DNA from: Methanobacteriota archaeon
GTDB taxonomy: Archaea > Thermoplasmatota > Thermoplasmata > SG8-5
Reading direction: 5' to 3'
Assembly: GCA_013791785.1 (NCBI GenBank)
Contig: VMTD01000061.1
Span: forward strand, 898 to 64,897
Length of the DNA stretch: 64,000 bases
In this document: in pieces, positions 1,871 to 58,288 of the stretch
Layout: each line of letters opens with the position of its first letter
Position numbering within the stretch: position 1 is the first letter of the stretch
The notes under the pieces: model-generated
The model's database searches: none
What the model saw: the letters and a program-made list of their open reading frames with translations, nothing else
Told to the model about the DNA's origin: nothing
Program-made: the position numbers and the translations under genes

Positions 1871-2551
1871 ATGAAGCTGATTCCTGCAATTTCCATCAAG
1901 CACGGCCACGTAGCAACGGTAGTGGATGGACTGTATGCCTACATGAAAAATGAGGAAGGGCAATACAGGAATCCGGTGAATGTTCTAACGAAAATTGAAC
2001 ATGCCGGCGAGGAGGTGTTCGTTCTGGACATAGACGGCCTTGAGCGGAACAGCCCCGACCTGGACACCGTCAAGAAGATGGCGGCTTACAAGGACGTGTG
2101 GCTTGATGCCGGTACCGACGATGTGGACAACATGATGGACCTGTTCGTTTCCGATGCTACGAAAGTCGTCATGGGAACCCTGAGCCTGGAATCCTTGGGC
2201 GAGCTGAAAAATGCCCTGGAACTCTCAGACAATGTCATGTTCTCCCTTGGTTACGACGGTGGAATTGTCAGTCCGAACCGGGAGATAGGGGAGATGAGCC
2301 TGGAATCCATGGCAAGGGAACTGGAGAAGATGCCAGAGCTCAATACGGGAATGCTGTTCGACCTGGGGAGCATCAGAGATAAGAAACCAGTAGACATGGG
2401 CGCCATAACTGCCATTGCAGGTTTGTTCAAAGAATTCTATGTGTCCGGCCATGTAACCGAGACGGAGTTCGGTGTGCTGGAAGACTCCGGCGTCAGCGGG
2501 GTAATTCTGGACTTCAGAAAGATAGGGAGCATTCACGATGAAGGAACTTGA
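1871..2551 (+). CDS. HisA/HisF-family TIM-barrel protein, divergent.
   Basis: The N-terminus MKLIPAISIKHGHV resembles the HisA/HisF motif (IPAIDLKDGK). The length is 226 aa. The gene overlaps the next one by 14 nt, which suggests an operon. Confidence 0.45.
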   Translation: MKLIPAISIKHGHVATVVDGLYAYMKNEEGQYRNPVNVLTKIEHAGEEVFVLDIDGLERNSPDLDTVKKMAAYKDVWLDAGTDDVDNMMDLFVSDATKVVMGTLSLESLGELKNALELSDNVMFSLGYDGGIVSPNREIGEMSLESMARELEKMPELNTGMLFDLGSIRDKKPVDMGAITAIAGLFKEFYVSGHVTETEFGVLEDSGVSGVILDFRKIGSIHDEGT

Positions 2552-3014
2552 AATAACCATTGCCCAGGTTTTCAGGAAGAAGGGCAGAACAGCCATGGCG
2601 GAGAGGGACTTTGTCTTTGCACTGTCTCTGGACTTCGGGTGGTTCAATCCCAAGGACGCGCAAAAATTACTGGAGAAAGGACTGGAGAGCGAACTGCTGG
2701 TCATGGATGACAACAAGGTTAAGCCGACATTTGATTATAATGATATTGAGATACCCAGGGGCTTCAAGCCGAGTCCGGAAATGCTGCAGAAAAAGTCCGA
2801 ACCGAAGGGCGTTTTCATGAAGATGATCGACGAGATTTCCATAGCCATATCGATACCCGCAAAGGACGTCATATCCCAGGTCAACAGCGTCCAGGACAGA
2901 ATGAGCGTGGATATTGAAGTGGCGGCCCTCATAGTCGCCAAAAATAACGGCGTGGACCTTTCCGATTACTTCGACACGGTGGAAGAGGAAATAGGCAAGC
3001 GCTACCGCGGGTAA
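2538..3014 (+). CDS. Conserved archaeal hypothetical protein (158 aa).
   Basis: The ORF overlaps the upstream gene, and its TAA stop lies inside the palindromic element at 3011. Confidence 0.4.
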   Translation: MKELEITIAQVFRKKGRTAMAERDFVFALSLDFGWFNPKDAQKLLEKGLESELLVMDDNKVKPTFDYNDIEIPRGFKPSPEMLQKKSEPKGVFMKMIDEISIAISIPAKDVISQVNSVQDRMSVDIEVAALIVAKNNGVDLSDYFDTVEEEIGKRYRG

Positions 3015-3140
3015 ACTACCAGCCCTAAAGTGGCTGGCGTTTCTAATTGGGCTGGAAGTTTACCTGGGGGCCATGCATATGTGCACGATGCATGGCAGGC
3101 CATGCATATGAGCACGGCGGTCTACATTTTGTTTATATCC
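3011..3140. repeat. Family A palindromic element, copy 1. The core is 3011-3063 (gtaaactaccagccc...gggctggaagtttac), followed by a module with ATGCAT/CATATG-containing inverted repeats.
   Basis: The same core occurs at 10643-10698 and 58077-58131. The downstream module is shared with copy 3 (gggggccatgca ... gcacggcggtcta). Confidence 0.8.
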
Positions 3141-3201
3141 GTGTAAATGGCCAATTCATCTCAGGCGTGAACGCCAGAGGGTTCTTGACATTTATCACTA
3201 A

Positions 3202-3954
3202 TCATCCGATATATTTCAGTTCATCCGGCTTGACTGTCGGCGGCTTCATGTCATTGAGGCTCGCGGTGAGGTCGTCAATCTCCTTGGAATGCTGTTCCAG
3301 TTCTGTAAAATCTATCTTGACGCCTATCAATTTTCCAAGAATTTCGAGTATGGCCTGGGCACTCTTCGGGTCCGAGAAGTAGCCGGAAGTTTCCCCCATG
3401 AGGCATGCTGCCTCTATGTTCCTGAGTTGGCCAAGGCCCAGAAGCAGACCGGCGGCGCCGACTATGCCGCCTGCGGGCTCGTCCTTCGAGAACTCCACGC
3501 CGACGGCCTTGAGTTCCTTCACCAGTGGCAGTGTGGTTGTTGCCCCGAGGACTCTGGGTTGGTTGACCAGTTTACCGACGCTCCAGCCGCCCAGTGTGTA
3601 AATTCTCTTGCCCTTGTACCTCTCGAAAATGTCCAGTATCTCGTGGGATATATCGTATTGCCCCTCCTGGGATATGCCCTGGTAGTCACCGGAGAGAATA
3701 ATTATGTCCGACCCAGACTTGGTTTTATGATAGTAAAGGTCATTGGAAACGAGCCTTATCACGCCGTCATTACCTATAAGAACCTGCGGTGGGAAATGCT
3801 TTGAATAAATGCTGGCAAATTTCTTCGCTTTCAGTTTCATGATAAGATGCTCGGCTGCCAGTTTGCCCACGTTCCCGACGCCCGGAAGACCCTCTACAAG
3901 TATGGGGGTCCGAAGTTTCGGTTCTTCGTGATAGATAACCATTAATTCCTTCAT
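3202..3954 (-). CDS. Proteasome-assembly chaperone family protein (PAC2 / PbaA-like).
   Basis: Motif LVEGLPGVGNVGKLAAEHLI. The start is assigned to the ATG at 3954, which overlaps the Nop10 stop as ATGA. The longer ORF starting at 4107 is rejected as an N-terminal extension. Confidence 0.6.
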   Translation of the reverse strand: MKELMVIYHEEPKLRTPILVEGLPGVGNVGKLAAEHLIMKLKAKKFASIYSKHFPPQVLIGNDGVIRLVSNDLYYHKTKSGSDIIILSGDYQGISQEGQYDISHEILDIFERYKGKRIYTLGGWSVGKLVNQPRVLGATTTLPLVKELKAVGVEFSKDEPAGGIVGAAGLLLGLGQLRNIEAACLMGETSGYFSDPKSAQAILEILGKLIGVKIDFTELEQHSKEIDDLTASLNDMKPPTVKPDELKYIG

Positions 3955-5476: not shown

Positions 5477-5613
5477 TGTAAGTGGTCAGTCTTCAGAAGT
5501 TATAATCCCGCAATAACAGATTTGATTTTCTAACTGGCTGTTATAATCTGTTCCTGTATCAGCTATATCAAATTGCCATAATTTATTGGCAGAGCTATCT
5601 GTAGTTTGCCAGA
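5477..5613. repeat. Family C intergenic repeat, copy 1 (about 135 bp), beginning tgtaagtggtcagtcttcagaagttat...ccgcaataacagat and ending ...ccataatttatt.
   Basis: The second copy is at 57955-58076. The 5' 44 nt and the ccataatttatt block are conserved between the two copies, and the middle parts are about 60% similar. Confidence 0.7.
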
Positions 5614-6700: not shown

Positions 6701-7105
6701 TTATGCTAATTTATCCTTTACCCAGTTGTGGAATCTATTGCATGCTTTTTTTGCATTCTCCGTATCCTCTCGGTCCATCAACCGCTCTTCATATTCAGCC
6801 GCATTTTTGATTGCGAGAAGAGAGGTTAATTGCTGGCCTTTATTCTCAAGTTCTTTCGGTTCGATTTCCAATCTCTGAAATAACTGGAGAACATCCTGAT
6901 GCCTGTCGCCTGCATGTCTGAATCCGAGGTAAAACACCGTGATAGCGTCCGCGGAATTTATCGCGCAATGGATGGCATTCACCACGCAGGCATTCCATAG
7001 TTCGCTGTCATAGTTTGCGTTCATGGATTCATAATGTTCATCAGCTTTTTTCAGATAATTCCTGAACAACCGGCGGTCCACCGCTCTGGTTCTCAATTCC
7101 GCCAT
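6701..7105 (-). CDS. HEPN-domain protein (HepT-like toxin component).
   Basis: HEPN R-x4-6-H motif (FRHAGDRHQD), 134 aa, placed immediately downstream of the MNT gene. Confidence 0.7.
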   Translation of the reverse strand: MAELRTRAVDRRLFRNYLKKADEHYESMNANYDSELWNACVVNAIHCAINSADAITVFYLGFRHAGDRHQDVLQLFQRLEIEPKELENKGQQLTSLLAIKNAAEYEERLMDREDTENAKKACNRFHNWVKDKLA

Positions 7106-7106
7106 G

Positions 7107-7706
7107 TCAAATCTCCACCCCGCCTTTCACAATCACAATCCCGTCGGAAAGCGCTTCCTTGACAAATCCAGTCTGGCGCCTTGTCATGAATTCTTCCTCC
7201 GAGATTATTACGGATGCAAGCGAAACAGAGAATATGCGAAGCAAATTCTCGGCAAGATTCTGCGACCTTGCCTCGGCCTCGGCCCTGTTTCCGGTGATGA
7301 TAAGCACATCGATATCGCTGTCGTACTTTTCCTCCGCCCTGGCAAAACTTCCGAACAGGACGCAGGTGCCGAGACCGTCCAATTTCTCTTTCATCAGGTC
7401 AAGCATATCCTGCCGAACCTGCTTTTCCTTCCCGAATAACTCCGAGAACAGGGGAAAAAGCGCGGAATCCGGACTGCACCGATACGAATGCGTCCGCCCC
7501 AGACGCTTGTAGAGAAACACATTGGTCTTGCGCAGGTCGTTCAGCGCCAGATTGACCGTGTTCGGGCTCATGCCTATCATCCCGGCAATCTCCCTTTCCG
7601 TGAACTCGCGTTCGGGGAACCTGAACAGCAGCCGGAGTATTCTGATCTTGGATTTCGAGTCCACCGTATCGTCCAGAAGGTTGTGGAGTTTCATGGTATC
7701 ATTCAA
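7107..7706 (-). CDS. Minimal nucleotidyltransferase (MntA-like antitoxin) with an N-terminal winged-helix domain.
   Basis: GS-x9-10-DxD nucleotidyltransferase motif (LFGSFARAEEKYDSDIDVLII) with an N-terminal HTH. It is separated from the HEPN gene by 1 nt. Confidence 0.7.
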   Translation of the reverse strand: MNDTMKLHNLLDDTVDSKSKIRILRLLFRFPEREFTEREIAGMIGMSPNTVNLALNDLRKTNVFLYKRLGRTHSYRCSPDSALFPLFSELFGKEKQVRQDMLDLMKEKLDGLGTCVLFGSFARAEEKYDSDIDVLIITGNRAEAEARSQNLAENLLRIFSVSLASVIISEEEFMTRRQTGFVKEALSDGIVIVKGGVEI

Positions 7707-7719
7707 TCCTATTTATAGG

Positions 7720-8370
7720 ACATATGCCCCATTTATAGGATTGAAGGTATTTAAGGGTTTTGGCGGGGTTATTCCCCTGTTGCCCTTGAGATGAGAAATA
7801 CGCGGAAGGGTATATGTGGAAGCGGAGGGGGTGGGCGAAAGTACGGGGGCAGGGACTTGGCCGGGATGGCTGGAAGCGGCCGCTTGGGGGTTGGCCGGTG
7901 CCGGAGCCCTGGGGCCGGGTTGTGCGCCGGTTTAAGCTAACCCCGCCCTTCGCTTCGCTCAGACGGGGCTTTTAAAGAATGATGCGGTAATCGTGTCACA
8001 CGACATCGAATTTTATGGATTCGATGGCGGGTACCCCGCCCTCCAGATAAAATGAGAAGGGATTCAGACGGGGCATGATGGGGATGAGCGGTGTGGGGGG
8101 CGCTTTTTTGGTCGGCGCTATTTCAGGAAAGATGGTCCGCAACATCCCCATACCTCGACATACAAGCCAGCACGTCATTTGGCATGCAGCATGCCCCGCC
8201 TGTGAGGGCGGGGTTTTATACTATTCTGGCATCAAGTGATATTCTTCCAAACAAATGATGCATTTTGCATTCTTCAACTGTCAAACCTCGCCTGTAAGGG
8301 CGGGGTGACGACGGCACCCCATCAAGCCGACAATTGGGAGACGGCCGCGCGCCCCCAGCCAGCCACGCCA
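7720..8370. other. 650-bp GC/G-rich region without a credible ORF. It carries TATA-like direct repeats at its 5' end and GC palindromes including a hairpin plus T-run at 8194-8219, and is a candidate ncRNA locus.
   Basis: There are no long ORFs. ccatttatagga occurs twice (7709-7720 and 7739-7750). Palindromes of the form CCCGCC-N5-6-GGCGGG lie at about 8032, 8194 and 8288, and family D repeats at 7870-7952. Confidence 0.4.
8194..8219 (+). terminator. Intrinsic-terminator-like hairpin (ccccgcc tgtgag ggcgggg) followed by TTTTAT.
   Basis: A perfect 7-bp GC stem is followed by a T-run. There is no upstream protein gene on this strand for about 500 bp. Confidence 0.4.
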
Positions 8371-9021: not shown

Positions 9022-10065
9022 ATGCCTGTGAAAGTTGCAATCAACGGATACGGAACAATCGGAAAGCGCGTGGCCGATGCCGTGCGCCAGCAGGATGACA
9101 TGGAGATTGTCGGGGTAGTCAAGAGACGCCCCACGTTCGAGGCCACGGATGCAATGCGGGAAGGTTACCCCTTCTACGCCGCTTCAAAGGAGAACATTCC
9201 GGACCTGGAGAATGCCGGAATAAAGGTTGAAGGCGTTCTCACTGACCTACTGGAGATGGCAGACATAGTGATTGACTGCACTCCCAAGAAGGCAGATTAC
9301 AAAACGCTCTATGAGAAACACAACGTCAAGGCCATCTGGCAGGGCGGCGAGAAACACGCACTTACAGGATTATCTTTCAATGCAATGGCGAATTACGAAG
9401 AGGCAATAGGCAAGCAGTTCGCCAGAGTGGTCTCCTGCAACACCACGGGGCTGTGCCGGACTCTTTACCCGATCAACGAGAAAATCGGCATCGAGAACGT
9501 CGAAGCCGTCATGATCCGCAGGGCTGCGGACCCCTGGGACACCAAGACCGGGCCGATAAATGCCATAGAGCCGGAAGTGAAAGTGCCCAGCCACCACGGA
9601 CCGGACGTTAAGACGGTCATGAAGGGCCTGAAAATCCAGACCATGGCCGTGAAAGTTCCAACCACTCTGATGCATCTGCACACAGTGGTTGTCACGCTGA
9701 AAAAGGAAGTGAGCAGCCAGGAAGTTCTGGACATCTGGGCAGCGACCCCCAGAGTACTGTTCTTCAGCACTGCCAACGGCATAAAATCCACCGCCCAGGT
9801 AATGGAGTGGGCCAAGGACACGGGCAGAAAGAGAGGCGATTTGTTTGAAATCGCAGTCTGGAAGGACGGCGTTCATGCAGTGAATGACCGGGACGAGAAC
9901 GTGAAGGATTTCGGCAGGATGCTGTACTACTCCCAGGCGATACATCAGGAGAGCGACGTGATACCGGAAAACATAGACTGCATAAGGGCCATGTGCGAAC
10001 TGGAAACAGACAAGCTGAAATCCATAAAGAAAACTGACGATGCAATGGGCATGCTGAAGGTGTGA
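9022..10065 (+). CDS. gap: Glyceraldehyde-3-phosphate dehydrogenase, archaeal type II.
   Basis: N-terminus [18 protein letters not shown], the catalytic SCNTTGL motif and a length of about 347 aa. The start was trimmed from 8974 to the conserved Met. Confidence 0.9.
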
Positions 10066-10646
10066 ACATGATTACCGAGAAAGACGTTGAAAAGCTCTTC
10101 GGAGCGTATCTGAAACAGATAAAGAACAAGAAGATGCGCGACATGACCGTGAAGGTATGGGTCGACGGATGCAAGCAGGGCGGCTGGACCACTGTCAAGC
10201 AACTGGAGAAGATGCCATACACTCTTCTGACAGAGACTTACGGCATCAATTTCATAGAGCACACCATCGCCGTAACGAGAGGCGCAATGGAACTCGCCAA
10301 GGCCCAGCTGGACACCTACAGGAAAATGCCTTACAAGATAGACATGGACCGATTGATTGTCGGCGGTCTGCTGCATGACATAGGAAAGCTGGTGGAGACA
10401 GAGCCGGACGGAAAGGGCGGGTACAGGAAGAGCCATGCAGGAAAATGCCTCCGGCATCCGGTGTCCGGAACCGTCATGGTCAAGATGGCCGGATTTTCTG
10501 ACGAGATAGCCAACACCATAGCATGCCACGCCAAGGAGGGCGAGGGCGCACCCCAGTGCATCGAGACAGTGTTCATCCATCAGGCTGATTTCGCTACGTT
10601 CAACCCGCTGGTCATGATGAACGGCGGAAAGCTGATACAGGAGTAA
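10062..10646 (+). CDS. HD-domain phosphohydrolase.
   Basis: It has an H...HD...D motif (GLLHDIGK). Its start overlaps the gap stop as ATGA, and its TAA stop lies inside the palindromic element. Confidence 0.7.
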
Positions 10647-10698
10647 ACTACCAGCCCCTAAAGTGGCTGGCGTTTGTTGCCAGGGCTGGAAGTTTACT
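10643..10698. repeat. Family A palindromic element, copy 2 (56 bp): gtaaactaccagcccctaaagtggctggcgtttgttgccagggctggaagtttac.
   Basis: The arms GTAAACTACCAGCCC and GGGCTGGAAGTTTAC are inverted repeats. The left GTAAAC contains the TAA stop of the HD gene on the plus strand. The right GTTTAC contains, on the minus strand, the TAA stop of the methyltransferase gene. Confidence 0.85.
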
Positions 10699-11407
10699 TC
10701 TCCTGTTTGAGGCGCTTCACGACCTTCACGGCCCGGCTGAAAACGCCGGCCAGGGTGTGGAATTCGTTCGACGAGAGCCCGGCCCTTGCCACTATCTTGC
10801 GGAACATTACCTTGGTCTTCTCTTTCTTGTAGGGCTGGTATGTTATCTCTTCCAGAAGGTCGGCAAAAAGTTTGTTCATGACCTTCTTTTCCTTGGAACC
10901 GGCAAACGTTTTCACTCTGGTTGATTTTGGGGGGCTGAACAGTTCATAGAATAGGATTGTCGCGGCATGGGAGAGGTTCAGAATCGGATTAATCTCGTGA
11001 GTGGGAATTGTCACCAGAATGTCGCAATTCTTCAGCTCTTCATTGAGCAGGCCCCTGTCCTCGCGACCAAATAATAAACCAACTCGGCCGGTTTTACTGG
11101 CCATGAAAGTTGCCAGCTGCTTCGGGGTTATCGGTTCCCTGAGAAACTTTCTGTTGCTGTCTGTGGGCTTTCCGGTACTTCCGACAATGATGTCCGCCAT
11201 ATCCAGTGCTTCACTGAGCTCATTGACGACCATTGCATTCTCCAGGATGTAGCGGCCGTGTTTGGAATACCGGTAAGCATCGTCCCCCAGTTCGCACGGG
11301 TTGACCAGCACAAGGTGTCCCAGGTCAAAATTGCTCATGGCCCTGGCTACCGAGCCTATGTTGCCAGGAAATTTCGGCTCCATCAGGATGACTATGTATT
11401 CGGGCAT
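10694..11407 (-). CDS. SpoU/TrmH-family RNA 2'-O-methyltransferase (TrmJ-like).
   Basis: SPOUT motifs are present (GNIGSVARAM and LLFGREDRGL...HAATILFYE). Confidence 0.8.
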   Translation of the reverse strand: MPEYIVILMEPKFPGNIGSVARAMSNFDLGHLVLVNPCELGDDAYRYSKHGRYILENAMVVNELSEALDMADIIVGSTGKPTDSNRKFLREPITPKQLATFMASKTGRVGLLFGREDRGLLNEELKNCDILVTIPTHEINPILNLSHAATILFYELFSPPKSTRVKTFAGSKEKKVMNKLFADLLEEITYQPYKKEKTKVMFRKIVARAGLSSNEFHTLAGVFSRAVKVVKRLKQEK

Positions 11408-15365: not shown

Positions 15366-16307
15366 ATGAAGACAGCAATCATCGCCATAGGCGGTAACGC
15401 ACTCATCAAGAAGGGCGAGGAAGGGAATATCTACCAGCAGTTCGCGAATGCGCGGGAGACTTGCGCCAAGCTGCTTAAAGTTGTGGAAATGGGCTATGAT
15501 ATTATTATCACGCACGGCAACGGACCCCAGGTGGGCCATGCCATCAGACGGCACGAGAACGCCAGGAAGATTTTCCCGCCTTACCCGCTGGGCATGTGCG
15601 TCGCCGAGACTGTCGGAAGCATGGGATACATGCTCCAGCAGACGATGCAGAACACGGTGAAGAAATCGAAAGTCGTGAGAAAAGACACTGTCACCATAAT
15701 CACCCAGGTCGTCGTCGACGATGACGACCCCTCATTCCAGAATCCCACAAAACCCATTGGCCAGTTCTTTTCGAAAGAGGACATTGAAAAGATAGCGAAG
15801 GCCGAGAAGTGGGCCGTCATTGAAGATTCGGGCCGGGGCTGGCGCCGCGTTGTGCCGTCGCCCAAACCGTTGCGCATAGTGGAGAAGGATACCATCGGCG
15901 ATTTACTGGCCAAGGGCAAGATAGTCATTGCCTGCGGCGGGGGCGGTTTGCCTGTTATTCAGCTGGAGGACGGGACGCTTGACGGCGTCGAGGCAGTCAT
16001 CGACAAGGATTATGCCTCATCCAAGCTGGCTCAGCAACTTGATCTTGACGAATTGATAATTCTCACCAGCGTGGACAAGGTCTCCCTGAACTTCGGGAAG
16101 CCGGATTACGTCGACCTGGATATCCTCACAGTCGCAGAGGCAAAGAAACACCTGAAGGACGGGCAATTCCCGCCGGGCTCCATGGGACCGAAAATCGAAT
16201 CGGCAATAGAATTCATCGAGAGCGGCGGCAAGAAAGCCGTCATCGCCAGTCACGAGAATCTGGTGGAAGCCATGCGGGGCAAGGCTGGGACTAGGATTGT
16301 GCGGTGA
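15366..16307 (+). CDS. arcC: Carbamate kinase.
   Basis: N-terminus MKTAIIAIGGNAL, amino-acid-kinase fold motifs and a length of 313 aa. Confidence 0.9.
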   Translation: MKTAIIAIGGNALIKKGEEGNIYQQFANARETCAKLLKVVEMGYDIIITHGNGPQVGHAIRRHENARKIFPPYPLGMCVAETVGSMGYMLQQTMQNTVKKSKVVRKDTVTIITQVVVDDDDPSFQNPTKPIGQFFSKEDIEKIAKAEKWAVIEDSGRGWRRVVPSPKPLRIVEKDTIGDLLAKGKIVIACGGGGLPVIQLEDGTLDGVEAVIDKDYASSKLAQQLDLDELIILTSVDKVSLNFGKPDYVDLDILTVAEAKKHLKDGQFPPGSMGPKIESAIEFIESGGKKAVIASHENLVEAMRGKAGTRIVR

Positions 16308-16445
16308 GTGTTACTGCAAAAATGAAGAGAAAGCACAGCCATGCGGGCAAGGCTGGGACCAGGATTGTGCGGTGAGTGTTAGTGGAATAATGAAGAGATA
16401 GCCCAGCCATGCGGGCAAGGCCGGGACCAGGATTGTGCGTTGAAC
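16271..16445. repeat. Tandem repeat of about 68 bp, 2.6 copies. The first copy encodes the last 12 codons of arcC plus its stop.
   Basis: ccatgcgggcaaggctgggaccaggattgtgcggtgagtgtta...gaagag..agc.cag is repeated at 16271, 16340 and, partially, 16407. Confidence 0.8.
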
Positions 16446-27943: not shown

Positions 27944-30297
27944 GCGGCGGAAAATGTGTGAGCAAGGACATTACAACCATCGGCGACAGGAACAAGGGAT
28001 TCCAGACTGGAAACACAAAACACGAGTGGGACCTTGAGAAGCTCAAAGCCAGCCGCAAAATTATTGCCGAGTTCAAGTATGAAAAGCGGGCCGTGGAAAA
28101 GGGATATGCCAACCGCACGCTGTTCGTTGACCTCACCAAGAACGAGATTCGCGAGGTTCCGGTTACCGAGGATATGAAGCAGAAGTTCACCGGCGGCCGC
28201 GGTTTCGGACTCAAGCTGCTCTGGGATACCATAAACCCGTCAACACGCTGGGACAGCGACGAGAATGGTCTTGTTCTCACGGCCGGGCCAATGTGTGGCT
28301 CGACTCAATACCCGGGCTTTGGAAAGACGCTTAGCTTGACAGTTTCTCCCTCAACATACATTATTTGCGACTCCAATGCCGGCGGTTATTTCGCGCCGTA
28401 CATGAAATTCGCCGGGTTTGATGCTATCCAGGTGCATGGAAAAGCGTCAGAAGACGTGGTCATCGTAATTGATGGCGAAGAGGGAAAAGTAACGATTGAG
28501 ACCGCGCCGGATGTGGAAGTTAATTCACACATGGTTGCAGAACAGCTTACCCATTTCTATGCCATTGAGGATTCCGAGGCAGCCAGACAGCGCGTCGCAA
28601 TCGTATCCGCGGGCAAGGGCGCCGAGCATTCTTACTGGGGCTGTCTGAACATATCGTTTTACGATGTACGAAGAAAGGTAGCCAGACTTAAACAGCACGG
28701 CCGCGGCGGCCTGGGAACTGTCCTGAGGAACAAGAAAGTGAAAGCGATTGTTGCCAGGACCGAGCACTTCGATGGACTGACCAATCACCCTGTGAACGCA
28801 GACAAGGTTGCAGAAATTGGAGCCAATTATCACAAGGAGATGCGAGACCTGGACAAAGAGCAGTGCAATATGCGAACTGTTGGAACTGGCCACCTTGTGG
28901 AAATCATGGATGCTTATGATTTACTGCCTACTGAAAATTACAGGTTCGGCAGCCATCCGAAGGCAAACAAAATTTTCTCTCCGCATTTCTACAAACTCTG
29001 GACCCAGGTTATTCCGGACGGATGCTGGTACGGCTGCACAATGGCCTGCGCCAAGGCATCGGACGGATTCCAGCTAATGACAGGACCGTACAAGGGCCAA
29101 AAAGTTACTGTTGATGGCCCGGAGTATGAAACACTTGGGTGCGCTTCAAACATGAGCATGTGGGACCCGCTGTACGTCCTTGAGTTCAACTTCTATTGCG
29201 ACACATACGGCCTGGACACGATTTCCACCGGAACAGCAATAGCATTCTACATGGAGATGTATGAATACGGCATTCTCAACAAAGAGAGATGCGGCGGCCT
29301 GGAACTGTGCTTCGGCAACAATGATGCAGTAATGCAATTCATCCACCGCCTGGCAGCCGGAGACGATGACGAATTCATCCAGGTTGCTGGAAAGGGCGCA
29401 AGAAGAGTCAAGGACTGGCTGAAAACCAAGAACTGGGGCGATGCCCAGTTGATTGAAGACACCGGCATGGAGAGCAAGGGCCTTGAGTATTCCGAGTACG
29501 TTACAAAAGAATCCCTGGCAATGCAGGGCGGTTACGGTCTAACGCTCAAGGGACCGCAGCATGACGAGGCCTGGCTAATCTTCATGGACATGGTGAACAA
29601 TCAGATTCCGACTTTCGCCGATAAAGCGGAAGCGCTCTGGTACTTCCCCATGTGGAGAACCTGGTTCGGGCTTCAGGGCCTGTGCAAGCTCCCGTGGAAT
29701 GATGTCGAGCCTTCGGATAACGCGCAAACAAGTGAGCCTGCAAAAGTTCCTGGCCACGTGCAGAATTATGTGGAAATCTTCAACGCGATTACCGGACAGA
29801 ACGTTGACAAGAACGGTCTAATATCCCAGAGCGAGCGCGCATACAACTGGCAGCGCGCAATGGCTGCCTGGCTTGGGCGCGGACGCAGAAAGGACGACTG
29901 GATACCCTACCGTTCAATGGGGCCGGTAACAGACATGGAATATATCTCCAGAAAGGAAAGATATGACAAGTACCTGGCCGAGGTTGCAGGAATACCCGCA
30001 GCAGAAGTCGAGGAAATGACCTTGCCCAGGAAGATGGAAGCTCTGTACAATTTCAGGCAAAATCAATATCAGAAACTTGCGGACGCAGTTTATTACCGCA
30101 GGGGCTGGACTCCGAACGGCGTGCCGACGCCACAGAAGATGAGGGGCATCGGCTTCGGCGACGAAACAGAGATGCTGGAAATGCTGCAAAAGAAGATTGA
30201 CGAGGATGAAGCAGCAGGACTCAATGTCTGGGGCGGGGAATACGGCCCGGGCGAGGAGCCGCCGACAAAGGACAGGAAGTACTGGGAGAAGTGGTAA
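27940..30297 (+). CDS. Aldehyde:ferredoxin oxidoreductase family protein (tungsten/molybdopterin-dependent) with N- and C-terminal extensions.
   Basis: AOR N-domain motif (ANRTLFVDLTKNEIREV) begins at about residue 55. The protein is 785 aa, against about 600-650 aa for characterised AOR, FOR and GAPOR. Confidence 0.8.
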   Translation: MSGGKCVSKDITTIGDRNKGFQTGNTKHEWDLEKLKASRKIIAEFKYEKRAVEKGYANRTLFVDLTKNEIREVPVTEDMKQKFTGGRGFGLKLLWDTINPSTRWDSDENGLVLTAGPMCGSTQYPGFGKTLSLTVSPSTYIICDSNAGGYFAPYMKFAGFDAIQVHGKASEDVVIVIDGEEGKVTIETAPDVEVNSHMVAEQLTHFYAIEDSEAARQRVAIVSAGKGAEHSYWGCLNISFYDVRRKVARLKQHGRGGLGTVLRNKKVKAIVARTEHFDGLTNHPVNADKVAEIGANYHKEMRDLDKEQCNMRTVGTGHLVEIMDAYDLLPTENYRFGSHPKANKIFSPHFYKLWTQVIPDGCWYGCTMACAKASDGFQLMTGPYKGQKVTVDGPEYETLGCASNMSMWDPLYVLEFNFYCDTYGLDTISTGTAIAFYMEMYEYGILNKERCGGLELCFGNNDAVMQFIHRLAAGDDDEFIQVAGKGARRVKDWLKTKNWGDAQLIEDTGMESKGLEYSEYVTKESLAMQGGYGLTLKGPQHDEAWLIFMDMVNNQIPTFADKAEALWYFPMWRTWFGLQGLCKLPWNDVEPSDNAQTSEPAKVPGHVQNYVEIFNAITGQNVDKNGLISQSERAYNWQRAMAAWLGRGRRKDDWIPYRSMGPVTDMEYISRKERYDKYLAEVAGIPAAEVEEMTLPRKMEALYNFRQNQYQKLADAVYYRRGWTPNGVPTPQKMRGIGFGDETEMLEMLQKKIDEDEAAGLNVWGGEYGPGEEPPTKDRKYWEKW

Positions 30298-30339
30298 TCA
30301 TCGGCATGCCAAATCCTTCGGATATTGGCAATTAAGAAT

Positions 30340-30372
30340 GCCAGGCTGAAGCCTGGCATCTTTACTATTTTT
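30340..30372 (+). terminator. Hairpin gccaggc-tgaa-gcctggc followed by a T-rich tract, downstream of AOR.
   Basis: Direct reading. A 7-bp stem is followed by atctttactattttt. Confidence 0.5.
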
Positions 30373-30470
30373 GAAATATATCCTACCATCGTAACCCAAT
30401 ACTTTCGCCCACCTCTAGGAATTGTTTATAACCGTCTGAGTGTTTTACCTGATTGAAGGAATGGTAATAC

Positions 30471-31481
30471 ATGGCTAAGAACAAAAAACTACCAGACAAC
30501 CAGATAACGGTTTACCAAACTCCAGATGGTGAAATTAATATTGAAGTGATGTACGTCAATGAAAATCTCTGGATGCCTCAAAAAAGAATGGCGGAGCTTT
30601 TTGGTGTAGAACGAAGTGTTGTTACCAAGCACCTGAAGAATATCTTTTCGGATAATGAGTTACAGAAAGATTCAGTGTGTGCAAATTTTGCACATACTGC
30701 CGAGGATGGCAAGGAATATCTGACTAATTTTTATTCTCTTGAAGCCATCATTGCCGTAGGTTACCGGGTAAATTCGGAACGTGGCATTCAGTTTCGACAA
30801 TGGGCGATTTCAATTCTCCAGCAATATATTCACAAAGGATTTGCGATTGACAATGACCGATTTAAACACGGCTCCCGTTTCAGCACGAGATATTTCGATG
30901 ACTTGCTGGAGGAGATACGTGACATCCGCTCCAGTGAAAGGATGCTGTATCAGAAAATAACTGATATTTATGCTACATCTATTGATTATTCTCTAAAAAC
31001 TGAGGACACAAAACAGTTTTTTGCGACAGTACAGAATAAACTGCACTTTGCCATTACTGGGCAGACCGCTGCAGAAATAATATCTGCACGGGCCAAGAGC
31101 GACAAGCCAAACATGGGATTGACATCATGGCGAAAAGGGCATGGGGGTAAAATCATGCCAGGTGATGTTATCATAGCAAAAAACTATCTGGATAAACAGG
31201 AGCTTGATCATTTAAACCGCATTGTAACCTTGTATCTTGATTATGCGGAGCTGCAAGCGGTTCGTAATAAACCCATGTACATGAAAGATTGGACTGAAAA
31301 ACTGAACGCTTTTCTGAAGTTCAGCGAATATGAAATACTTACCAATGCAGGGACAATCAGCCATGAAGTTGCTCTTGCCCTGGCTAACAAAGAATATGAA
31401 ACATTCAAGAAAATTCAGGATACAAATTATCTCTCGGATTTTGATAAAGAGGTTAAAAGGGTTAGAGAGTGTAAGAAATGA
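30471..31481 (+). CDS. RhuM-family protein (Virulence_RhuM domain), a common marker of mobile and defence islands.
   Basis: N-terminal region ITVYQTPDGEINIEV...NLWMPQKRMAELFGVERSVVTKHLKNIF matches the RhuM/Fic-associated DNA-binding family. The coding region is AT-rich. Confidence 0.65.
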   Translation: MAKNKKLPDNQITVYQTPDGEINIEVMYVNENLWMPQKRMAELFGVERSVVTKHLKNIFSDNELQKDSVCANFAHTAEDGKEYLTNFYSLEAIIAVGYRVNSERGIQFRQWAISILQQYIHKGFAIDNDRFKHGSRFSTRYFDDLLEEIRDIRSSERMLYQKITDIYATSIDYSLKTEDTKQFFATVQNKLHFAITGQTAAEIISARAKSDKPNMGLTSWRKGHGGKIMPGDVIIAKNYLDKQELDHLNRIVTLYLDYAELQAVRNKPMYMKDWTEKLNAFLKFSEYEILTNAGTISHEVALALANKEYETFKKIQDTNYLSDFDKEVKRVRECKK

Positions 31482-31984
31482 TTGAGACTGAAAGACTGTA
31501 CCTGAGACTGATGAAAGAATCAGACACTGACGATATGCTGGGTATATTCAATGAACCCAAATTAATGAAAGCATTTGGTTTTGAGTCCTTTTCCAGAGAG
31601 CAAATGATACGATGGGTGAGTAGAAATCTCCAGTATCAAGAAAAGTATGGCTACGGTTTATTTTCTGTCATTCTGAAAAGCAATGGAAAATTAATTGGAG
31701 ATTGCGGTCTGGAATGCACGACTTTTGAAGGAAATGAATGTATTGAGATTGGGTATGATTTTTCCAGTGTTTATTGGAATCAGGGCTATGCGACAGAAGC
31801 TGCTTCAGCGGTCAGGGATTTTTCCATCAATGACCTGAACATTGATTCCAGGCTTTTGTGTAGTTTTATCCGAAAAATAAATGCCCCATCAATTAGGGTA
31901 TCTCAGAAAATTGGCATGAAAAAGACAAAAGAATACTCTCAAAATGGAATTGAATATTATCTCTATCAGTTTCCACCGCCCTGA
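31478..31984 (+). CDS. GNAT N-acetyltransferase (RimJ/RimL-like).
   Basis: It overlaps the RhuM-family stop. GNAT motifs are present and the region is AT-rich. Confidence 0.7.
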   Translation: MIETERLYLRLMKESDTDDMLGIFNEPKLMKAFGFESFSREQMIRWVSRNLQYQEKYGYGLFSVILKSNGKLIGDCGLECTTFEGNECIEIGYDFSSVYWNQGYATEAASAVRDFSINDLNIDSRLLCSFIRKINAPSIRVSQKIGMKKTKEYSQNGIEYYLYQFPPP

Positions 31985-32055
31985 ATGATGCTATTTGTCA
32001 CAAAACCCCAAACCATATCTAACACAACAATATTCCCTTCCATAAAGGTGATATC

Positions 32056-32448
32056 ATGGACAGCAGAGTCAAGAACATGTTCGCAGACGAGAAAATAAAA
32101 TTCGGAGTACTGGCCGAAGCATTTCCGGGCATGAAGGAATACTTCGAGGGAACGAAACCCGGCAGAATAAACCGGTATGACAACGGCGTCATGAGCATTG
32201 TCATCAACGGCCAGGGCAAGGAAAAGCCCTCGACGTTCGGGTACCTACCAGTGGGAAGATTCGTGTTCAACGTGGGAGGCAACCGGGAGACCATGCATTT
32301 CCTCCACGGCGAGATTGACTGGGGCTTTGGAAAGAACCCGACTGTTAGACCAAAGCAATATGACATTCTGGTGATTCCCGCAGGCGAGGATTTAATCCTG
32401 AACGTTAAGAAACCGACGCTCTACGTTTGCGATTATCTGAAACAATGA
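32056..32448 (+). CDS. Small cupin-like hypothetical protein (130 aa).
   Basis: Short beta-rich protein with HFLHGEIDWGF...LVIPAGEDL. Its stop overlaps the radical-SAM gene start as ATGA. Confidence 0.4.
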   Translation: MDSRVKNMFADEKIKFGVLAEAFPGMKEYFEGTKPGRINRYDNGVMSIVINGQGKEKPSTFGYLPVGRFVFNVGGNRETMHFLHGEIDWGFGKNPTVRPKQYDILVIPAGEDLILNVKKPTLYVCDYLKQ

Positions 32449-33317
32449 AAAAGATTGTTTTGGCTTCCCACCTGGCTCATTTCGAACTGAAGAGAAAGCT
32501 CACAGGAATTAAATACTTCGCTGAAATCGACATCACCGACAATTGCAATCTCAGGTGCGGCCATTGCTATCACTTTCACGGCAAGAACGTTTTCGAGAAA
32601 AAAGAATTGCCCCTGGGGGTTTGGAAAAAGCGGTTCAGAACGCTTCACAGAGGGGGAATTCGATGCGTTCTGCTGGTTGGCGGCGAACCCGCCCTCAGGG
32701 CAGACGTGCTAATGCTGGCCCACAATATTTTTCCGTTTGTATATGTGATTACCAACGGTACAGTTTTCATCCCGAAGAAGTTCAATCATCTTCTTTTCGT
32801 GTCGCTGGACGGCATGCGGGAGACCAATGATATAATTCGCGGACGCGACACATTCGACAGAGTTTTAAAGAATTATTCAGGAGATAAGCGCGTCGCCATA
32901 AACATGACCATAACCATGGACAATTACAGGGAACTGGAGAACGTTGTTCGCCTTTCCAAAAAACACGGGTTCAGAGGCGTGGTGTGCAATATCTGCGCAT
33001 CGGGAACAGACGTAAAAGTACCCATGCACATCAAGGCCGATGAGAGAAAAACAGTCATGAAAGAGCTGAGGCGCGTTAAAGAAAAATATCCGAAGCAATT
33101 TTTGCTCAGCGATGCCATGCTCAGGTGGTATGAAAAAGCGGACCATCGCGGCAGATGCTACTGGGGCGATGATGTACTGCATTTTGATGTGAACTGGAAA
33201 AAAAGGCGGTGTTTCGGCTCCAATGCGGACTGCTCGAACTGCGGATGCCTGGCAGGCTCTTTCCAGAACCCGTTTTTAATGGCTTTTACCGCCAAGGAGT
33301 TCAGGAAATTGGTTTGA
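32445..33317 (+). CDS. Radical SAM enzyme with a C-terminal Cys-rich auxiliary-cluster (SPASM/twitch-like) domain.
   Basis: CNLRCGHCYHF is a CxxxCxxC motif. A SLDGMRETNDIIRG motif is present. The C-terminal cysteines are C-x17-C-x6-C-x2-C-x-C. The start was placed at the ATGA overlap (MKKIVLASH). Confidence 0.7.
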   Translation: MKKIVLASHLAHFELKRKLTGIKYFAEIDITDNCNLRCGHCYHFHGKNVFEKKELPLGVWKKRFRTLHRGGIRCVLLVGGEPALRADVLMLAHNIFPFVYVITNGTVFIPKKFNHLLFVSLDGMRETNDIIRGRDTFDRVLKNYSGDKRVAINMTITMDNYRELENVVRLSKKHGFRGVVCNICASGTDVKVPMHIKADERKTVMKELRRVKEKYPKQFLLSDAMLRWYEKADHRGRCYWGDDVLHFDVNWKKRRCFGSNADCSNCGCLAGSFQNPFLMAFTAKEFRKLV

Positions 33318-33351
33318 AAATGCTTATAAGGTCCATCATCTTTCCAGAATT

Positions 33352-34122
33352 ATGGTGTTCCCGAACTATCCGAACAAACAGTCCGAAAAGGCTTTGTTCA
33401 GTCCGTCTGATTTCATGGAATATGCAAAGAAGAGAGGCCAATACCCGACGATTGAACCGCCCGATGGACTGATCCTTTGTTATGACAGGAATCTGCTTGC
33501 GTTCATCCTGGCCAACCACAAGACAACTGTAGCGAGGATTTTCGGAGAGGTTCATGTTCTGGATGAAACTGAGGGGAAGATTGCCATTGCCAGCGTTCAC
33601 GGAATTGGCGGGCCATGCGCTGTCACCACCATGGAGGAGAAGATCGCGTTCGGGATCAACAAGTTCATTTCCATTGGCCTAGCTGGCTCCCTCCAGAAAA
33701 GCATTGGGATCGGCGATATCGTTGTATGCGACAGGGCGATAAGGGACGAGGGCGTTTCCCACCATTATCTGGAGAGTTCAAAGTATGCCCATGCCTCGGA
33801 GGAGATGACGAAACGCATCAAGAGTTCGTTGGACAAGTTGGGTATCGAATATGTTACAGGCACCAGCTGGACCACAGATGCCGTGTACCGGGAAACGACC
33901 GCCGAGGTTTCCCAGTATCAGAAAGATGGCGTGGCAACCGTGGAAATGGAGGCCGCCGCGCTCTTCGCGGTGGCCCAATACCGCAAGGTCCAGATTGGTT
34001 CGATACTGACTATAAGCGATTCGCTGGCTGACATGAAATGGCAGCCCGAGTTCCATTCCGAAAATGCGAAAACGGGTTTGGAAAATCTTTTCAAGGCAGC
34101 AGTCAACGCCTTGTTGATGTGA
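33352..34122 (+). CDS. PNP/UDP-family nucleoside phosphorylase or nucleosidase (MTA/5'-deoxyadenosine nucleosidase-like).
   Basis: Motifs GIGGPCAVTTMEE, DIVVCDRAIRDEG, VEMEAAALFAVA and ILTISD are typical of PF01048. Confidence 0.65.
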   Translation: MVFPNYPNKQSEKALFSPSDFMEYAKKRGQYPTIEPPDGLILCYDRNLLAFILANHKTTVARIFGEVHVLDETEGKIAIASVHGIGGPCAVTTMEEKIAFGINKFISIGLAGSLQKSIGIGDIVVCDRAIRDEGVSHHYLESSKYAHASEEMTKRIKSSLDKLGIEYVTGTSWTTDAVYRETTAEVSQYQKDGVATVEMEAAALFAVAQYRKVQIGSILTISDSLADMKWQPEFHSENAKTGLENLFKAAVNALLM

Positions 34123-34162
34123 AGAATTAAGTATCTTAAAAAGAATTCCTTTTTGCGATACC

Positions 34163-34504
34163 ATGGACAAAATAATCGGCTTCTGCGGACTTGTGTGCAC
34201 GGAATGCCCGACCTACCTGGCCACGGTGAATGATGATGAGGCGCTGAGAAAAGCCACAGCCGCCAAATGGTCGGAGATGTACAAATCGGACATCAAACCG
34301 GAAAACATCAAATGCAACGGCTGCACCACGCCGGGCATCAAGTTCCACCACTGCACCGAGTGCGAGATGCGGATTTGCGGCATTGCCAAGGGCGTGAAGA
34401 ACTGTGGGCGGTGCGGGGATTACCCGTGCGCCAAGATCGAGGCATTCTTGAAGTACGTGCCCGATGCGAAGGCAGTACTGGATGAGGAGAATCGGGCACG
34501 CTGA
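34163..34504 (+). CDS. Small Cys-rich protein, DUF3795-like.
   Basis: GFCGLVCTECPTY...CNGC...CTEC...CGRCGDYPC pattern. Confidence 0.5.
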   Translation: MDKIIGFCGLVCTECPTYLATVNDDEALRKATAAKWSEMYKSDIKPENIKCNGCTTPGIKFHHCTECEMRICGIAKGVKNCGRCGDYPCAKIEAFLKYVPDAKAVLDEENRAR

Positions 34505-34514
34505 TGCATTTGGT

Positions 34515-34566
34515 TGGCTGGAACCAACCGCTTGGCCAGGATGTGCGCCGATTTAAGCTAACCCCG
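34515..34566. repeat. Family D repeat copy (...gtgcgccgatttaagctaaccccgc).
   Basis: It matches 7924-7950 (gtgcgccggtttaagctaaccccgc) and shares the ccgcttgg prefix with 7874-7881. Confidence 0.7.
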
Positions 34567-34571
34567 CTCCA

Positions 34572-35336
34572 CTATTTCGGTGGACAATATCTCCCGATGA
34601 TGAACCAAGTCGGATATTGTGAGTACATGCCCATCACAAAATGGAAGTTGGTTTTTTCCAGCATTTTAATGAAATACTTATCTTGAAGCTTTTCCCAGAG
34701 AATTTCCGGGGTTTGATACCTCGGCCCCCAGCTCCTGTAAGATTCGAATAGTTCCCAGTCCTCGCACTGCATGTTATGCTCGCTTTCTCCGCAACACTGG
34801 CATTTGAATTTATACTTGAAAATGTGTGGTATTTTGGTAACTTTTGGAATGATTTCACCGTCGAGATTCATGGTGGCGGACCATCCGTTGTTCTCGTATA
34901 TTTCCAAATTGTCGGTTTTGATGAAATCCAGCAATTCTGTCGGTTTGATTAATCCAAGAGATGTTTTGTCTGTTTCATAGGCGTCTTTCAATGCTTGGAT
35001 GGAATTCGAAACATGAGGCAGTACAATCTTGTTCCTGGCATTCCAGTCAACCTTTGGTTTGGTTAAACTGCGGTCAATTATCGTAATTGAGTCTGGCCTT
35101 ACCTTGTGGCTCTCCTTTCTGCCGAGCTTGTCAGCGTCTTTCTGGCACATGACCTCTATGACATCAAATTTGGATATTTTGTTCTCCCCGATGAAATGTC
35201 GCATGTCAATCGGATAGAGCCTTATCCATTCCCCTTCATCGGTAATTCCTGCGGTACAGGCCACATCCCCATGTTTCAGGCTTGGTTCAGGATATGCCTT
35301 GGTGATAATGGTAATTCTTTTCTTTTCCCACGTCAA
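34572..35336 (-). CDS. Uncharacterised protein with a C-terminal CxC...C zinc ribbon. It is probably translationally coupled to the upstream gene through a TTG start.
   Basis: Non-repetitive sequence throughout. A TTG start overlapping the upstream TGA (TTGA) gives MTWEKKRITIITKAYPEP... The longer ORF running to 35654 overlaps the DUF488 gene and is rejected. The region is AT-rich. Confidence 0.45.
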   Translation of the reverse strand: MTWEKKRITIITKAYPEPSLKHGDVACTAGITDEGEWIRLYPIDMRHFIGENKISKFDVIEVMCQKDADKLGRKESHKVRPDSITIIDRSLTKPKVDWNARNKIVLPHVSNSIQALKDAYETDKTSLGLIKPTELLDFIKTDNLEIYENNGWSATMNLDGEIIPKVTKIPHIFKYKFKCQCCGESEHNMQCEDWELFESYRSWGPRYQTPEILWEKLQDKYFIKMLEKTNFHFVMGMYSQYPTWFIIGRYCPPK

Positions 35337-53961: not shown

Positions 53962-54385
53962 TGCGCTACCTTAAGCGGCTTCGGGTAAAAAACGTTTTGT
54001 AGCCGCAATCAAATCGTTTGCAGAATGTCGATTGCGGAAATTCCTCACACCCGTAATCAAAAACGTATCTAAAATGTCGATTACGGAAATTTTATGATGG
54101 TGCATGATGATTAAATGGCCCATCATGGCGAACGCTCTTTTTTGTTTTCATTTAGATTTCGCATTCACCATTTGTTTGTAAAACGATTATAATTTTATGG
54201 CCCCTGGATTTAGTTTGAAAACGTTTCCGGGCCATAGGCGAATGCGATGTTTGGATATGTTCGGAACTGCATTCACCACACGTCGTAAATCGAAAATCTA
54301 CAATCTAAAATTGACAATCGCCAATGTTGCCGCTTCCGGTAAAAAACATTTTGTAGTGCGGCAACATGGACGTGTTGGTGAACCC
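53962..54385. repeat. Repeat-rich divergent intergenic region.
   Basis: Paired direct repeats: gcttc.ggtaaaaaac.ttttgtag.gc at 53976 and 54325; cgatt.cggaaatt at 54039 and 54081; gcattcacca at 54155 and 54258. A partial family B array (cgtcgtaaatcgaaaatctacaatctaaaattgacaatcg) lies at 54278-54317. Confidence 0.6.
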
Positions 54386-57775: not shown

Positions 57776-57855
57776 ATTTGTTCACCGAGGACGGGGATAA
57801 GGTGATAGGTTAATAATTTTAGCCACCCTTGTGGAAGGAAAATGCCCAACCATAT

Positions 57856-57940
57856 TTTAGATTTTAGATCTTAGATTTTAGATTTGTGCTGGCAGAATGC
57901 CCAACCGTATTTTAGATTTTAGAACTTAGATTTTAGATTT
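57856..57940. repeat. Family B arrays of the unit GATTTTAGAT, in two blocks separated by tgctggcagaatgcccaaccgt. This is the inverted counterpart of 1718-1802.
   Basis: See 1718-1802. Confidence 0.8.
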
Positions 57941-57954: not shown

Positions 57955-58288
57955 TGTAAGTGGTCAATCTTCAAAAGTTATTATTCCGCAATAACAGATG
58001 TAATTATATGACTGACTATTGTAATCAATTCCCGTTTCAGTTAAATCAAAAAACCATAATTTATTGTTAGAACTATGTAAACTACCAGCCCCTAAAGGAG
58101 TTGGCGTTTGTTGCCAGGGCTGGAAGTTTACCCAGGGGGCCATGCACCTAATTTATCAAAGCCAAATGGCTTTGATTTCATATGCTGGCATATGCACGGT
58201 GCACGGCGGTCTATTTTTTGTTCAGAGGGGTACTTGGGGATGCGGACCACTTACCGTTGTAAGAGGCTTCACATCAGTGACCTCTTAC
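57955..58288. mobile_element. MITE-like composite insertion of about 334 bp. It consists of family C copy 2 (57955-58076), the family A palindromic core (58077-58131), the family A downstream module and a terminal hairpin. It is flanked by a GAATATG direct repeat and has imperfect terminal inverted repeats GTAAG(T/A)GGTCA.
   Basis: GAATATG occurs at 57948-57954 and again at 58289-58295. The paralogous locus at about 1697-1712 has a single catattc (reverse-complemented) and no insert. The 5' end is tgtaagtggtca. The reverse complement of the 3' end is gtaagaggtcac. Confidence 0.4.

Follow-up and report, generated by a model that had tools for sequence, protein, structure and literature searches.

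A palindrome that ends two convergent genes of an uncultured archaeon is probably the end module of a short IS200/IS605-type transposon

A 55-bp palindrome at positions 10643-10697 of a 64,000-nt stretch of archaeal DNA (Methanobacteriota archaeon; Thermoplasmatota, Thermoplasmata, SG8-5; assembly GCA_013791785.1, contig VMTD01000061.1, positions 898 to 64,897; the window in what follows) lies between two convergent genes and supplies the stop codons of both. A preliminary description of this DNA took the palindrome for a complete element. It is instead the end module, A, of a unit of about 208 nt with three hairpins, A-B-C, and the repeat occurs in at least 127 distinct copies in related archaeal genomes. 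With moderate confidence, we assign the palindrome, as right-end module, to a non-autonomous mini-transposon of the IS200/IS605 type, similar to the palindrome-associated transposable elements (PATEs) of haloarchaea, which has multiplied in an uncultured clade of Thermoplasmata.

The palindrome, GTAAACTACCAGCCC...GGGCTGGAAGTTTAC, has 15-nt arms with a single mismatch (A opposite A at arm position 8). It had been given as 56 bp long (10643-10698); the palindrome is real, but base 10698 belongs to the flank. The outermost four bases of the palindrome on each side are the TAA of one gene, as the preliminary description had it, and the base before it, which completes the final sense codon. The plus-strand open reading frame (ORF) 10062-10646, which encodes an HD domain (Pfam E=5e-12), ends ...CAG GAG TAA, and its final G and TAA are bases 1-4 of the palindrome, at the start of the left GTAAAC. 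The minus-strand ORF 10694-11407, which encodes SpoU_methylase (SpoU/TrmH), ends ...GAG AAG TAA, with its final G and TAA given by the reverse complement of the right-arm end, GTTTAC. We read this copy, copy 2 of the window, as the right-end module of the family, with a guide-like AACG, a hairpin, 4 nt and a terminal TTAC. Its features are as follows.

10643..10697, minus strand: copy 2, solo module A, a 55-bp near-palindrome; the minus strand reads GTAAACTTCCAGCCCTGGCAACAAACG (CCAGCCACTTTAGGGGCTGG) TAGTTTAC
10644..10646, plus strand: TAA stop of the HD-domain gene, within the left arm GTAAAC
10694..10696, minus strand: TAA stop of the SpoU/TrmH methyltransferase gene, within the right arm
10651..10670: inner 6-bp hairpin CCAGCC-N8-GGCTGG, candidate transposase-binding hairpin, homologous to the module C hairpin

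Matches to the 15-mer arm with no more than three mismatches number eight in the window against 0.75 expected, and none of 100 shuffles reached eight, so chance is excluded. All three window copies fold with z-scores of -3.4 to -4.9. When the three are aligned, copies 1 and 3 remain conserved past the right side of the hairpin over some 90-140 nt, so the repeat unit is larger than the hairpin. The tRNA scan found no tRNA in the window. The preliminary description was right that copy 1 (3011-3063) supplies the TAA of the gene starting at 2538, which is ORF 2538-3014 and encodes DUF2240, and that copy 3 (58077-58131) lies within a composite insertion, a 575-nt intergenic mosaic of other repeats.

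3011..3063, minus strand: copy 1, module A; TAA 3012-3014 is the working stop of the DUF2240 gene 2538-3014
3067..3125, minus strand: copy 1, rearranged module B; the GGCCATGCAT... unit is partly duplicated and the inner hairpin lost
3149..3201, minus strand: copy 1, module C subtype 2; GGCCAATTCAT (CTCAGGCGTGAACGCCAGAG) GGTTCTTGACATTTATCACTAA
58077..58131, minus strand: copy 3, module A; in the intergenic mosaic, no stop codon donated
58136..58213, minus strand: copy 3, module B1; outer stem GGCCATGCACC/GGTGCACGGC, inner hairpin ATCAAAGCC...GGCTTTGAT, no module C after it

On the minus strand, module C of copy 1 reads TTAG, then TGATAAATGTCAAGAACC, then the hairpin, and is a candidate left end. 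A second repeat family of about 122 nt starts GTAAGTGGTCAG... and is present in the window at 5477-5598 and at 57955-58076 (80% identical); the latter copy directly adjoins hairpin copy 3.

The 127 copies pool a one-arm scan of a genome collection and a paired-arm scan of metagenomes; individual loci carry an L and a number below. The one-arm scan with the 15-mer was swamped by chance matches, mostly bacterial, and among the genome matches listed the loci with two arms were confined to Thermoplasmata/Methanomassiliicoccales metagenome-assembled genomes (MAGs). The paired-arm scan gave 84 loci, mostly on long contigs of one metagenome, Ga0180732, selected by exact arms and so not usable for judging arm conservation. 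The same paired-arm pattern had no match in viral contigs, which rules out a virus-borne repeat.

Most copies follow one plan. In 94 of the 127, module A is followed by about 4 variable bases and then by a long hairpin, B1 (GGCCATGCACC...ATCAAAGC-loop-GCTTTGAT...GGTGCATGGCGG), and in a further 15 by the compensated variant B2 (GCAGTTGCATACC...ATCGAAGC...GCTTCGAT...GGTATGCAACGG). Module A stands alone in four (window copy 2, L161, L184 and L198), while in the other 14 A mostly runs straight into C, the third hairpin module, or into variants of B. Lengths group at 205-211 nt for complete A-B-C units and at 114-115 nt for A-C units. Module B was seen without A only about twice and module C never without A or B, and we therefore rejected the idea that B and C insert on their own at the TTAC of the hairpin. 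Units in tandem share a single GTAA/TTAC (...CAGTAAACTACCAG...), as expected if the TTAC of the right end is itself a target.

Some copies are themselves rearranged. The 3' half of module B (CACGGTGCATGGCGG) forms tandem runs of up to seven units at several Ga0180732 loci and is partly duplicated in window copy 1 (3067-3125), which suggests slippage-prone internal repeats. On the minus strand of L138, at about 7100-7146, there is only GTAAAAACCAGCCCTTGAATGGGCTGGTTTTGTTTTT where L108 (97.6% amino acid identity) has the full element; this sequence, a simple hairpin with a T-run, is similar to module A over the module's first 35 nt and may represent either a decayed copy or a precursor. We also considered whether CCAGCC-N-GGCTGG might be a frequent native terminator from which module A descended, and rejected this, as the motif is rare outside the element (5 loci).

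The complement of the strand written in the preliminary description folds better. The consensus of the complementary strand has 46 pairs, of which 19 are compensated, at -70.4 kcal/mol; the strand first written has 43 pairs, of which 14 are compensated, at -53.2 kcal/mol. In the inner hairpin of A and the stems of B and C, most mismatches are A.C in the original orientation, which the complement turns into G.T; the second hairpin of A has the opposite pattern. These folds point to the complement as the active strand. Read on it, the unit consists of TTAC or TTAG, 18-19 nt ending in AACG or AACC, the C' hairpin, the long hairpin B', AACG, the A' hairpin and TAGT TTAC. The left part is TTAC, TGCATAAATGCCGAGAACG, the hairpin CTCAGTC CTTTAG GGCTGAG and ATGAATCGGCA, leading to B'; the right part continues from B' through CAACAAACG and the hairpin CCAGCC ACTTTAGG GGCTGG to TAGTTTAC, where the unit ends. 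The C' and A' hairpins at the two ends have the loop CTTTAGG in common, both are preceded by AACG, and the C' stem shows compensatory changes.

Stems conserved through compensatory changes would also be expected if the hairpin were mainly a functional RNA or terminator (a 3'-end, bidirectional or small structured RNA) selected at gene ends, its overlap with stop codons a by-product of compaction. On the plus strand of copy 2 the inner hairpin (10651..10670) is followed by the T-rich CGTTTGTTG, and many copies lie at gene 3' ends: 3' ends face the element from both sides in 29 of the 127 copies, and although all intergenic classes are occupied, divergent spacers are the least used (14). The terminator-like pattern is present on one strand only, however, and archaeal termination requires oligo-T rather than hairpins. 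Nor is there any preference in orientation relative to the left-hand gene, with 60 copies co-directional and 53 opposed among 113, so that 53 of the 113 face the 5' end of that gene. These observations, and the better fold of the complementary strand, do not support the bidirectional terminator offered by the preliminary description. Rfam had no match over the whole window at its gathering score, and for two copies searched with E up to 10 it returned only chance-level matches (E >=0.07). The element is also absent from orthologous sites in close relatives whose gene order is unchanged. We consider an RNA or terminator as the main function very unlikely; such a role could exist as a side effect.

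The ends of the unit are well defined. The left boundary in the original orientation is sharp at GTAAAC, with unconserved flank beyond it, and the other end is CAGTAA or CACTAA. There are no terminal inverted repeats: the ends read GTAAACTACCAGCC... and ...TTTATGCAGTAA or ...TTATCACTAA, and the reverse complement of one mismatches the other. On the complementary strand 62 of 65 copies have TTAC or TTAG in front of the C' end, the choice depending on the subfamily, and 19 nt (TGCATAAATGCCGAGAACG) separate the TTAC from the foot of the C' hairpin. In subtype C1 the base adjacent to the foot is G (guides AACG, AAAG and AATG) and the terminal tetranucleotide TTAC, while in C2 it is C (AACC and AATC) and the tetranucleotide TTAG. 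All 23 aligned full units follow this association, as do 59 of the 62 module C ends that terminate in (G/C)TAA. The co-variation of guide and target is suggestive, and comes from only two or three subfamilies. A target duplication of 4 bp was rejected, as the two ends of C2-subtype copies (7 of the 23 aligned full units) read GTAA and CTAA.

These features are close to those of IS608 from Helicobacter pylori, in which the target TTAC lies 19 nt 5' of the foot of the left-end hairpin. The 4 nt 5' of each foot in IS608 are guides that pair with the cleavage tetranucleotides, altering the left guide alters the target, and excision leaves the TTAC behind with the target preserved (PMC3201880). The A-B-C family appears to share the TTAC target and the 19 nt to the left hairpin foot, and the 4 nt 5' of each foot may match its cleavage tetranucleotide; its excision and insertion would likewise leave the target intact. 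Unlike the A-B-C units, IS608 has tnpA and tnpB genes, and its end is TCAA, 10 nt past its right hairpin; the right end of the A-B-C unit, as read from the sequence alone, is a TTAC only 4 nt past the hairpin and identical to the target. The IS608 guide is AAAG, which one A-B-C subfamily shares, the others having AACG or AACC.

By analogy with IS608, a Y1 (HUH) transposase acting in trans would excise the element as a single strand and paste it 3' of TTAC or TTAG. The left TTAC or TTAG would be the target motif, lying outside the element, and the right TTAC the element's own last four bases. A circle junction of the form ...GGTAGTTTAC joined to TGCATAAATGCC... would be expected from such a peel-and-paste process. 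On the opposite strand the target would read GTAA or CTAA and thus contain an ochre codon. As end and target are identical, GTAA, and with it the TAA, would be regenerated: the terminal TTAC of the element would restore GTAA before the displaced flank. A gene ending in (G/C)-TAA and hit at its stop codon would keep a TAA in place, with at most the third base of its last sense codon altered, and the original TAA would be displaced to the far end of the element.

Copy 1 has the arrangement that this model predicts. In two syntenic relatives (L216 and L218) the DUF2240 gene ends ...AAG AAA TGA and adjoins the stop of a convergent PAC2 gene with a spacer of 0 (TGA/TCA and TGA/TTA). The window instead reads ...CGC GGG TAA, the A-B-C unit, then CAC TAA/TCA TCC GAT.... 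The hairpin's TAA is the working stop, and a second TAA stands at the far end of the element exactly where the relatives stop; the terminal CTAA (3198-3201) occupies the ancestral stop position and adjoins the TCA (3202-3204) that is the stop of the PAC2 gene. Among the DUF2240 homologues listed, 20 of the 25 others have 158 residues, as does the window protein, and the rest 135-164.

Three comparisons between relatives, the window with L216 and L218, the window with L122, and L084 with L180, have the element present in one and absent from the other with precise junctions, which shows that it is mobile. In L180 the element-free gene ends AGC GTT TAA, and in L084 (80% amino acid identity) the occupied gene ends AGC GTG TAA followed by the element. 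The element-free orthologue in the pair L139 and L178 stops (TGA) within about three codons of the same position. Elsewhere an old insertion is held in common (L195 and L008, 88% amino acid identity), and in L124 and L198 the hairpin lies in opposite orientations on the same stop codon. All four element-free sites have stops at or near the position of the occupied gene. The preliminary description would have taken the same stops in orthologues lacking the element as a sign that the overlap was trivial. The orthologues do have them, but triviality does not follow, as targeted insertion into stop codons predicts conserved stop positions.

The origin of copy 2 is harder to trace. Its only syntenic relative among those found, L122 (68% amino acid identity), lacks the element, and there the SpoU and HD genes overlap by 10 nt and both end in TGA, so the exact pre-insertion sequence cannot be reconstructed. 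The HD protein of L122 is as long as that of the window (...LIQD* against ...LIQE*), and SpoU has 237 residues in both. Closer relatives (L120 and L121, 80-82%) carry other repeats at the end of SpoU. In L120 (2290-2330; SpoU 82% identical) a copy of the GTAAGTGGTCAG... repeat, which is unrelated to the hairpin, has inserted after SpoU ...RLK and is read through and translated as an 11-residue tail.

Copy 2 is probably a deletion derivative of a full unit. A complete unit would have inserted at the stop of the HD gene, beside the abutting stop of SpoU. A later deletion, with one endpoint in SpoU's own G-TAA and the other in the GTAA at the start of module A' on that strand, would have removed C' and B' and left only the hairpin, with a stop at each of its two symmetric ends. 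The deletion model reproduces the sequence AAG TAA ACTTCC... and explains why both proteins have kept their ancestral length.

Stop donation is a trait of the family and is not confined to the window. The TAA of the terminal GTAAAC is the stop codon of an ORF of at least 80 codons in 18 of the 127 copies. A long ORF ends within 120 nt of that end in 71 copies; 18 of these are at one offset and the others evenly spread (P ~4e-27). Unoccupied (G/C)TAA sites in the same loci comprise 77 stop codons and 1,590 non-coding sites, giving an expectation of 4.6% at stops against the 14% observed (P=2e-5, or P=0.01 if the true expectation is 8%); these percentages are approximate, the gene calls being simply the longest ORFs of at least 80-100 codons. 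The number of copies, the 18 at stops and the four element-free orthologous sites bear out the suggestion in the preliminary description of a mobile element, like some repetitive extragenic palindromic (REP) sequences or MITEs (miniature transposable elements with inverted repeats), that uses TAA-containing sites. The target preference, together with the few harmless sites available in a gene-dense genome where convergent genes abut or overlap, would account for most of the excess. It is possible, though doubtful, that the match of TTAC end and target is an adaptation and no coincidence, with ochre stops as 'safe harbours' in which the stop is regenerated each time and through which genomes with abutting or overlapping convergent genes, lacking any other neutral site, are colonised. 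On that reading the near-palindromic right end would also free stop donation from orientation and allow deletion derivatives such as copy 2 to end two genes.

The same junctions could arise if the element were a MITE mobilised by a DDE transposase with a 3-bp target duplication, TAA, of the kind made by elements of the IS5/Harbinger type (TNA/TAA). Every complete unit has xTAA on both sides, the stop position is duplicated at copy 1, and junction sequences alone cannot tell such a duplication from a target and end pair of the IS608 type. The ends, however, share no inverted repeat (GTAAACTACCAG... against the complement TTACTGCATAAATG...), and a G almost always precedes the left TAA, a position that on this view belongs to the flank. 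The hairpins at the ends, the spacing of 19 nt and the co-variation of the guide would be left without a function, and a search of roughly 900 kb around the copies revealed neither a DDE transposase nor a multi-copy protein family. We regard this explanation as quite unlikely.

In these 900 kb, 1,565 ORFs compared all against all by BLAST yielded neither a multi-copy protein family nor a transposase family, and motif filters found no TnpB-like and one Y1-like protein. On L166, 690 nt separate the A-B-C copy from a Y1_Tnp gene (PF01797, E=5e-21) that is frameshifted, and related assemblies contain intact homologues (93% identity, 148 residues). A conserved segment 3' of the intact genes is followed by a stem like that of module B (GGCCATGCGG...GCGCCATGGCG), with neither A nor C. 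The intact homologues thus share a B-like stem and an upstream segment, 'X', with the family and lack its A and C ends, and the link to IS200-type transposons appears real but partial.

A Y1 gene as the only transposase-like gene near a copy, with no multi-copy transposase, is also what might be expected of an archaeal counterpart of bacterial REP sequences and their mosaics (bacterial interspersed mosaic elements, BIMEs), in which palindromes are spread and maintained by a single-copy, domesticated REP-associated tyrosine transposase (RAYT) and there is no insertion sequence. The repeats are high-copy, extragenic and mosaic like BIMEs, and module B usually starts with GTAG followed by a palindrome (GTAGGCCATGCA...), resembling the GTAG motif of REP elements. 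The Y1 gene of L166 is frameshifted, however, and in the DNA sampled neither A nor B hairpins flank it in inverted orientation; its intact homologues, found in varied settings, have the appearance of ordinary IS200 copies. Two different, defined ends and a target motif fit a transposon better than a REP doublet, and we think a REP/RAYT-like system unlikely.

The IS200-like Y1 genes have a recurrent neighbourhood. They adjoin a DUF4258 gene paired with a MazE/AbrB-like gene (L166 289-1416, L208 2363-3447, L213 825-1872), which in L208 is upstream of tnpA and in L166 and L213 lies between tnpA and the conserved 3' segment, in the manner of cargo. In L214 a 27-nt direct repeat (ATTCCGGGTCGCCGAAACTACTCCCGC) flanks the IS200-like tnpA, at about 955-985 and 1585-1612, and its complement contains GTAGTTT, which is also found at the end of module A'.

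Several observations weigh against the IS200/IS605-type interpretation. An autonomous partner with ends matching C' and A' was not found in the DNA sampled, and the IS200-like genes of L208-L215 are without both hairpins. The tnpA of L166 points from A to C, opposite to the proposed active strand, which would be unusual if gene and repeat formed one element. The right-end cleavage site would lie inside the long stem of the A hairpin, 4 nt from the inner hairpin rather than the 10 nt of IS608. The four solo hairpins have no preceding TTAC, and the proposed mechanism cannot have moved them as such. Module B is almost never found without A, and the model leaves its role unexplained. The positions that co-vary between guide and target fall within one 23-nt stretch, and with two or three subfamilies could reflect linkage rather than base pairing. 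A 3-bp TAA duplication by a transposase of another type that prefers G-TAA would give identical junctions. The crude gene calls and the sampling bias of copies selected by exact arms count on the same side.

The closest known parallel is with the PATEs of Haloquadratum walsbyi, which are non-autonomous derivatives of IS200/IS605 elements without terminal inverted repeats or target duplication. They have near-terminal palindromes and a targeting sequence of 4-6 nt, and repeat-mediated deletion gives rise to derivatives of about 52 bp that retain only the termini (PMC3119063). As far as that account describes them, PATEs and the A-B-C family share the lack of terminal inverted repeats and, probably, of target duplication, mutually similar near-terminal palindromes and a short conserved targeting oligonucleotide at one end. 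Neither, on the same account, is long enough to encode a protein; both run to tens or hundreds of copies and build nested and tandem mosaics with other small repeats, and the solo hairpins would correspond to the remnants of about 52 bp that PATEs leave. Compared with what is described there, the A-B-C family differs in occurring in Thermoplasmata and not Halobacteria, in having no sequence similarity to PATEs, in having one end within a 55-bp near-perfect palindrome with the putative cleavage tetranucleotide in the stem, and in that no parental transposon with matching ends was found in the DNA sampled. Use of stop codons is not mentioned for haloarchaeal PATEs in the parts of the account drawn on here (PMC3119063).

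The A-B-C family can also be set beside the small repeats of bacteria, from which it differs in that its end sequence regenerates a stop codon at the ancestral position. The REP/BIME, Correia/nemis, ERIC, RUP and SMAG families are short, structured extragenic repeats that reach high copy numbers and form mosaics, and individual copies may provide the stop codon of a flanking gene or lie across it. Terminal inverted repeats, with duplications of TA or other sequence, are present in Correia, ERIC and RUP elements; REPs are dependent on RAYTs. While elements of the PATE kind are already known, the distinctive trait of the A-B-C family would be that its target and its own end jointly regenerate ochre stops.

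The proposed model explains how an element can sit on stop codons, even between genes without a spacer, and leave the proteins unaltered. The C-termini and stop codons of genes in these Thermoplasmata MAGs would be partly derived from a transposon, and neighbouring genes can seem to share a hairpin. Around 100 near-identical repeats of 200 nt per genome would be expected to break MAG contigs. If the model is correct, this is an uncharacterised archaeal family of the IS200/IS605 type with a readable code of guide and target (TTAC or TTAG); should the mechanism not hold, what is left is an intergenic repeat of an ordinary kind with a high copy number.

The window contains further repeats away from the three copies or beside the mosaic around copy 3. 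Minisatellite-like arrays of AATCTAAAATCT and GATTGTAGAT units occur at 1593-1803, 54266-54311, 57829-57938 and 58312-58357; they occupy several intergenic regions, include tandem duplications of 39 nt and 55 nt, and often lie beside other repeats. A 68-nt tandem duplication (91% identical) at 16277-16412 covers the last bases of ORF 15366-16307 and lies mostly beyond them. The 34-nt sequence GGCCGGGTTGTGCGCCGGTTTAAGCTAACCCCGC is present twice, at 7913-7946 and 34534-34567, 26.6 kb apart and with 91% identity. The second of these copies is at the edge of a low-GC block (about 30000-36000; 41-49% against about 53% elsewhere), and the pair may be attachment-site-like repeats. A RhuM-family protein (Pfam E=2e-105) is encoded in the block, along with other small ORFs of accessory appearance, and the block may be an integrated element.

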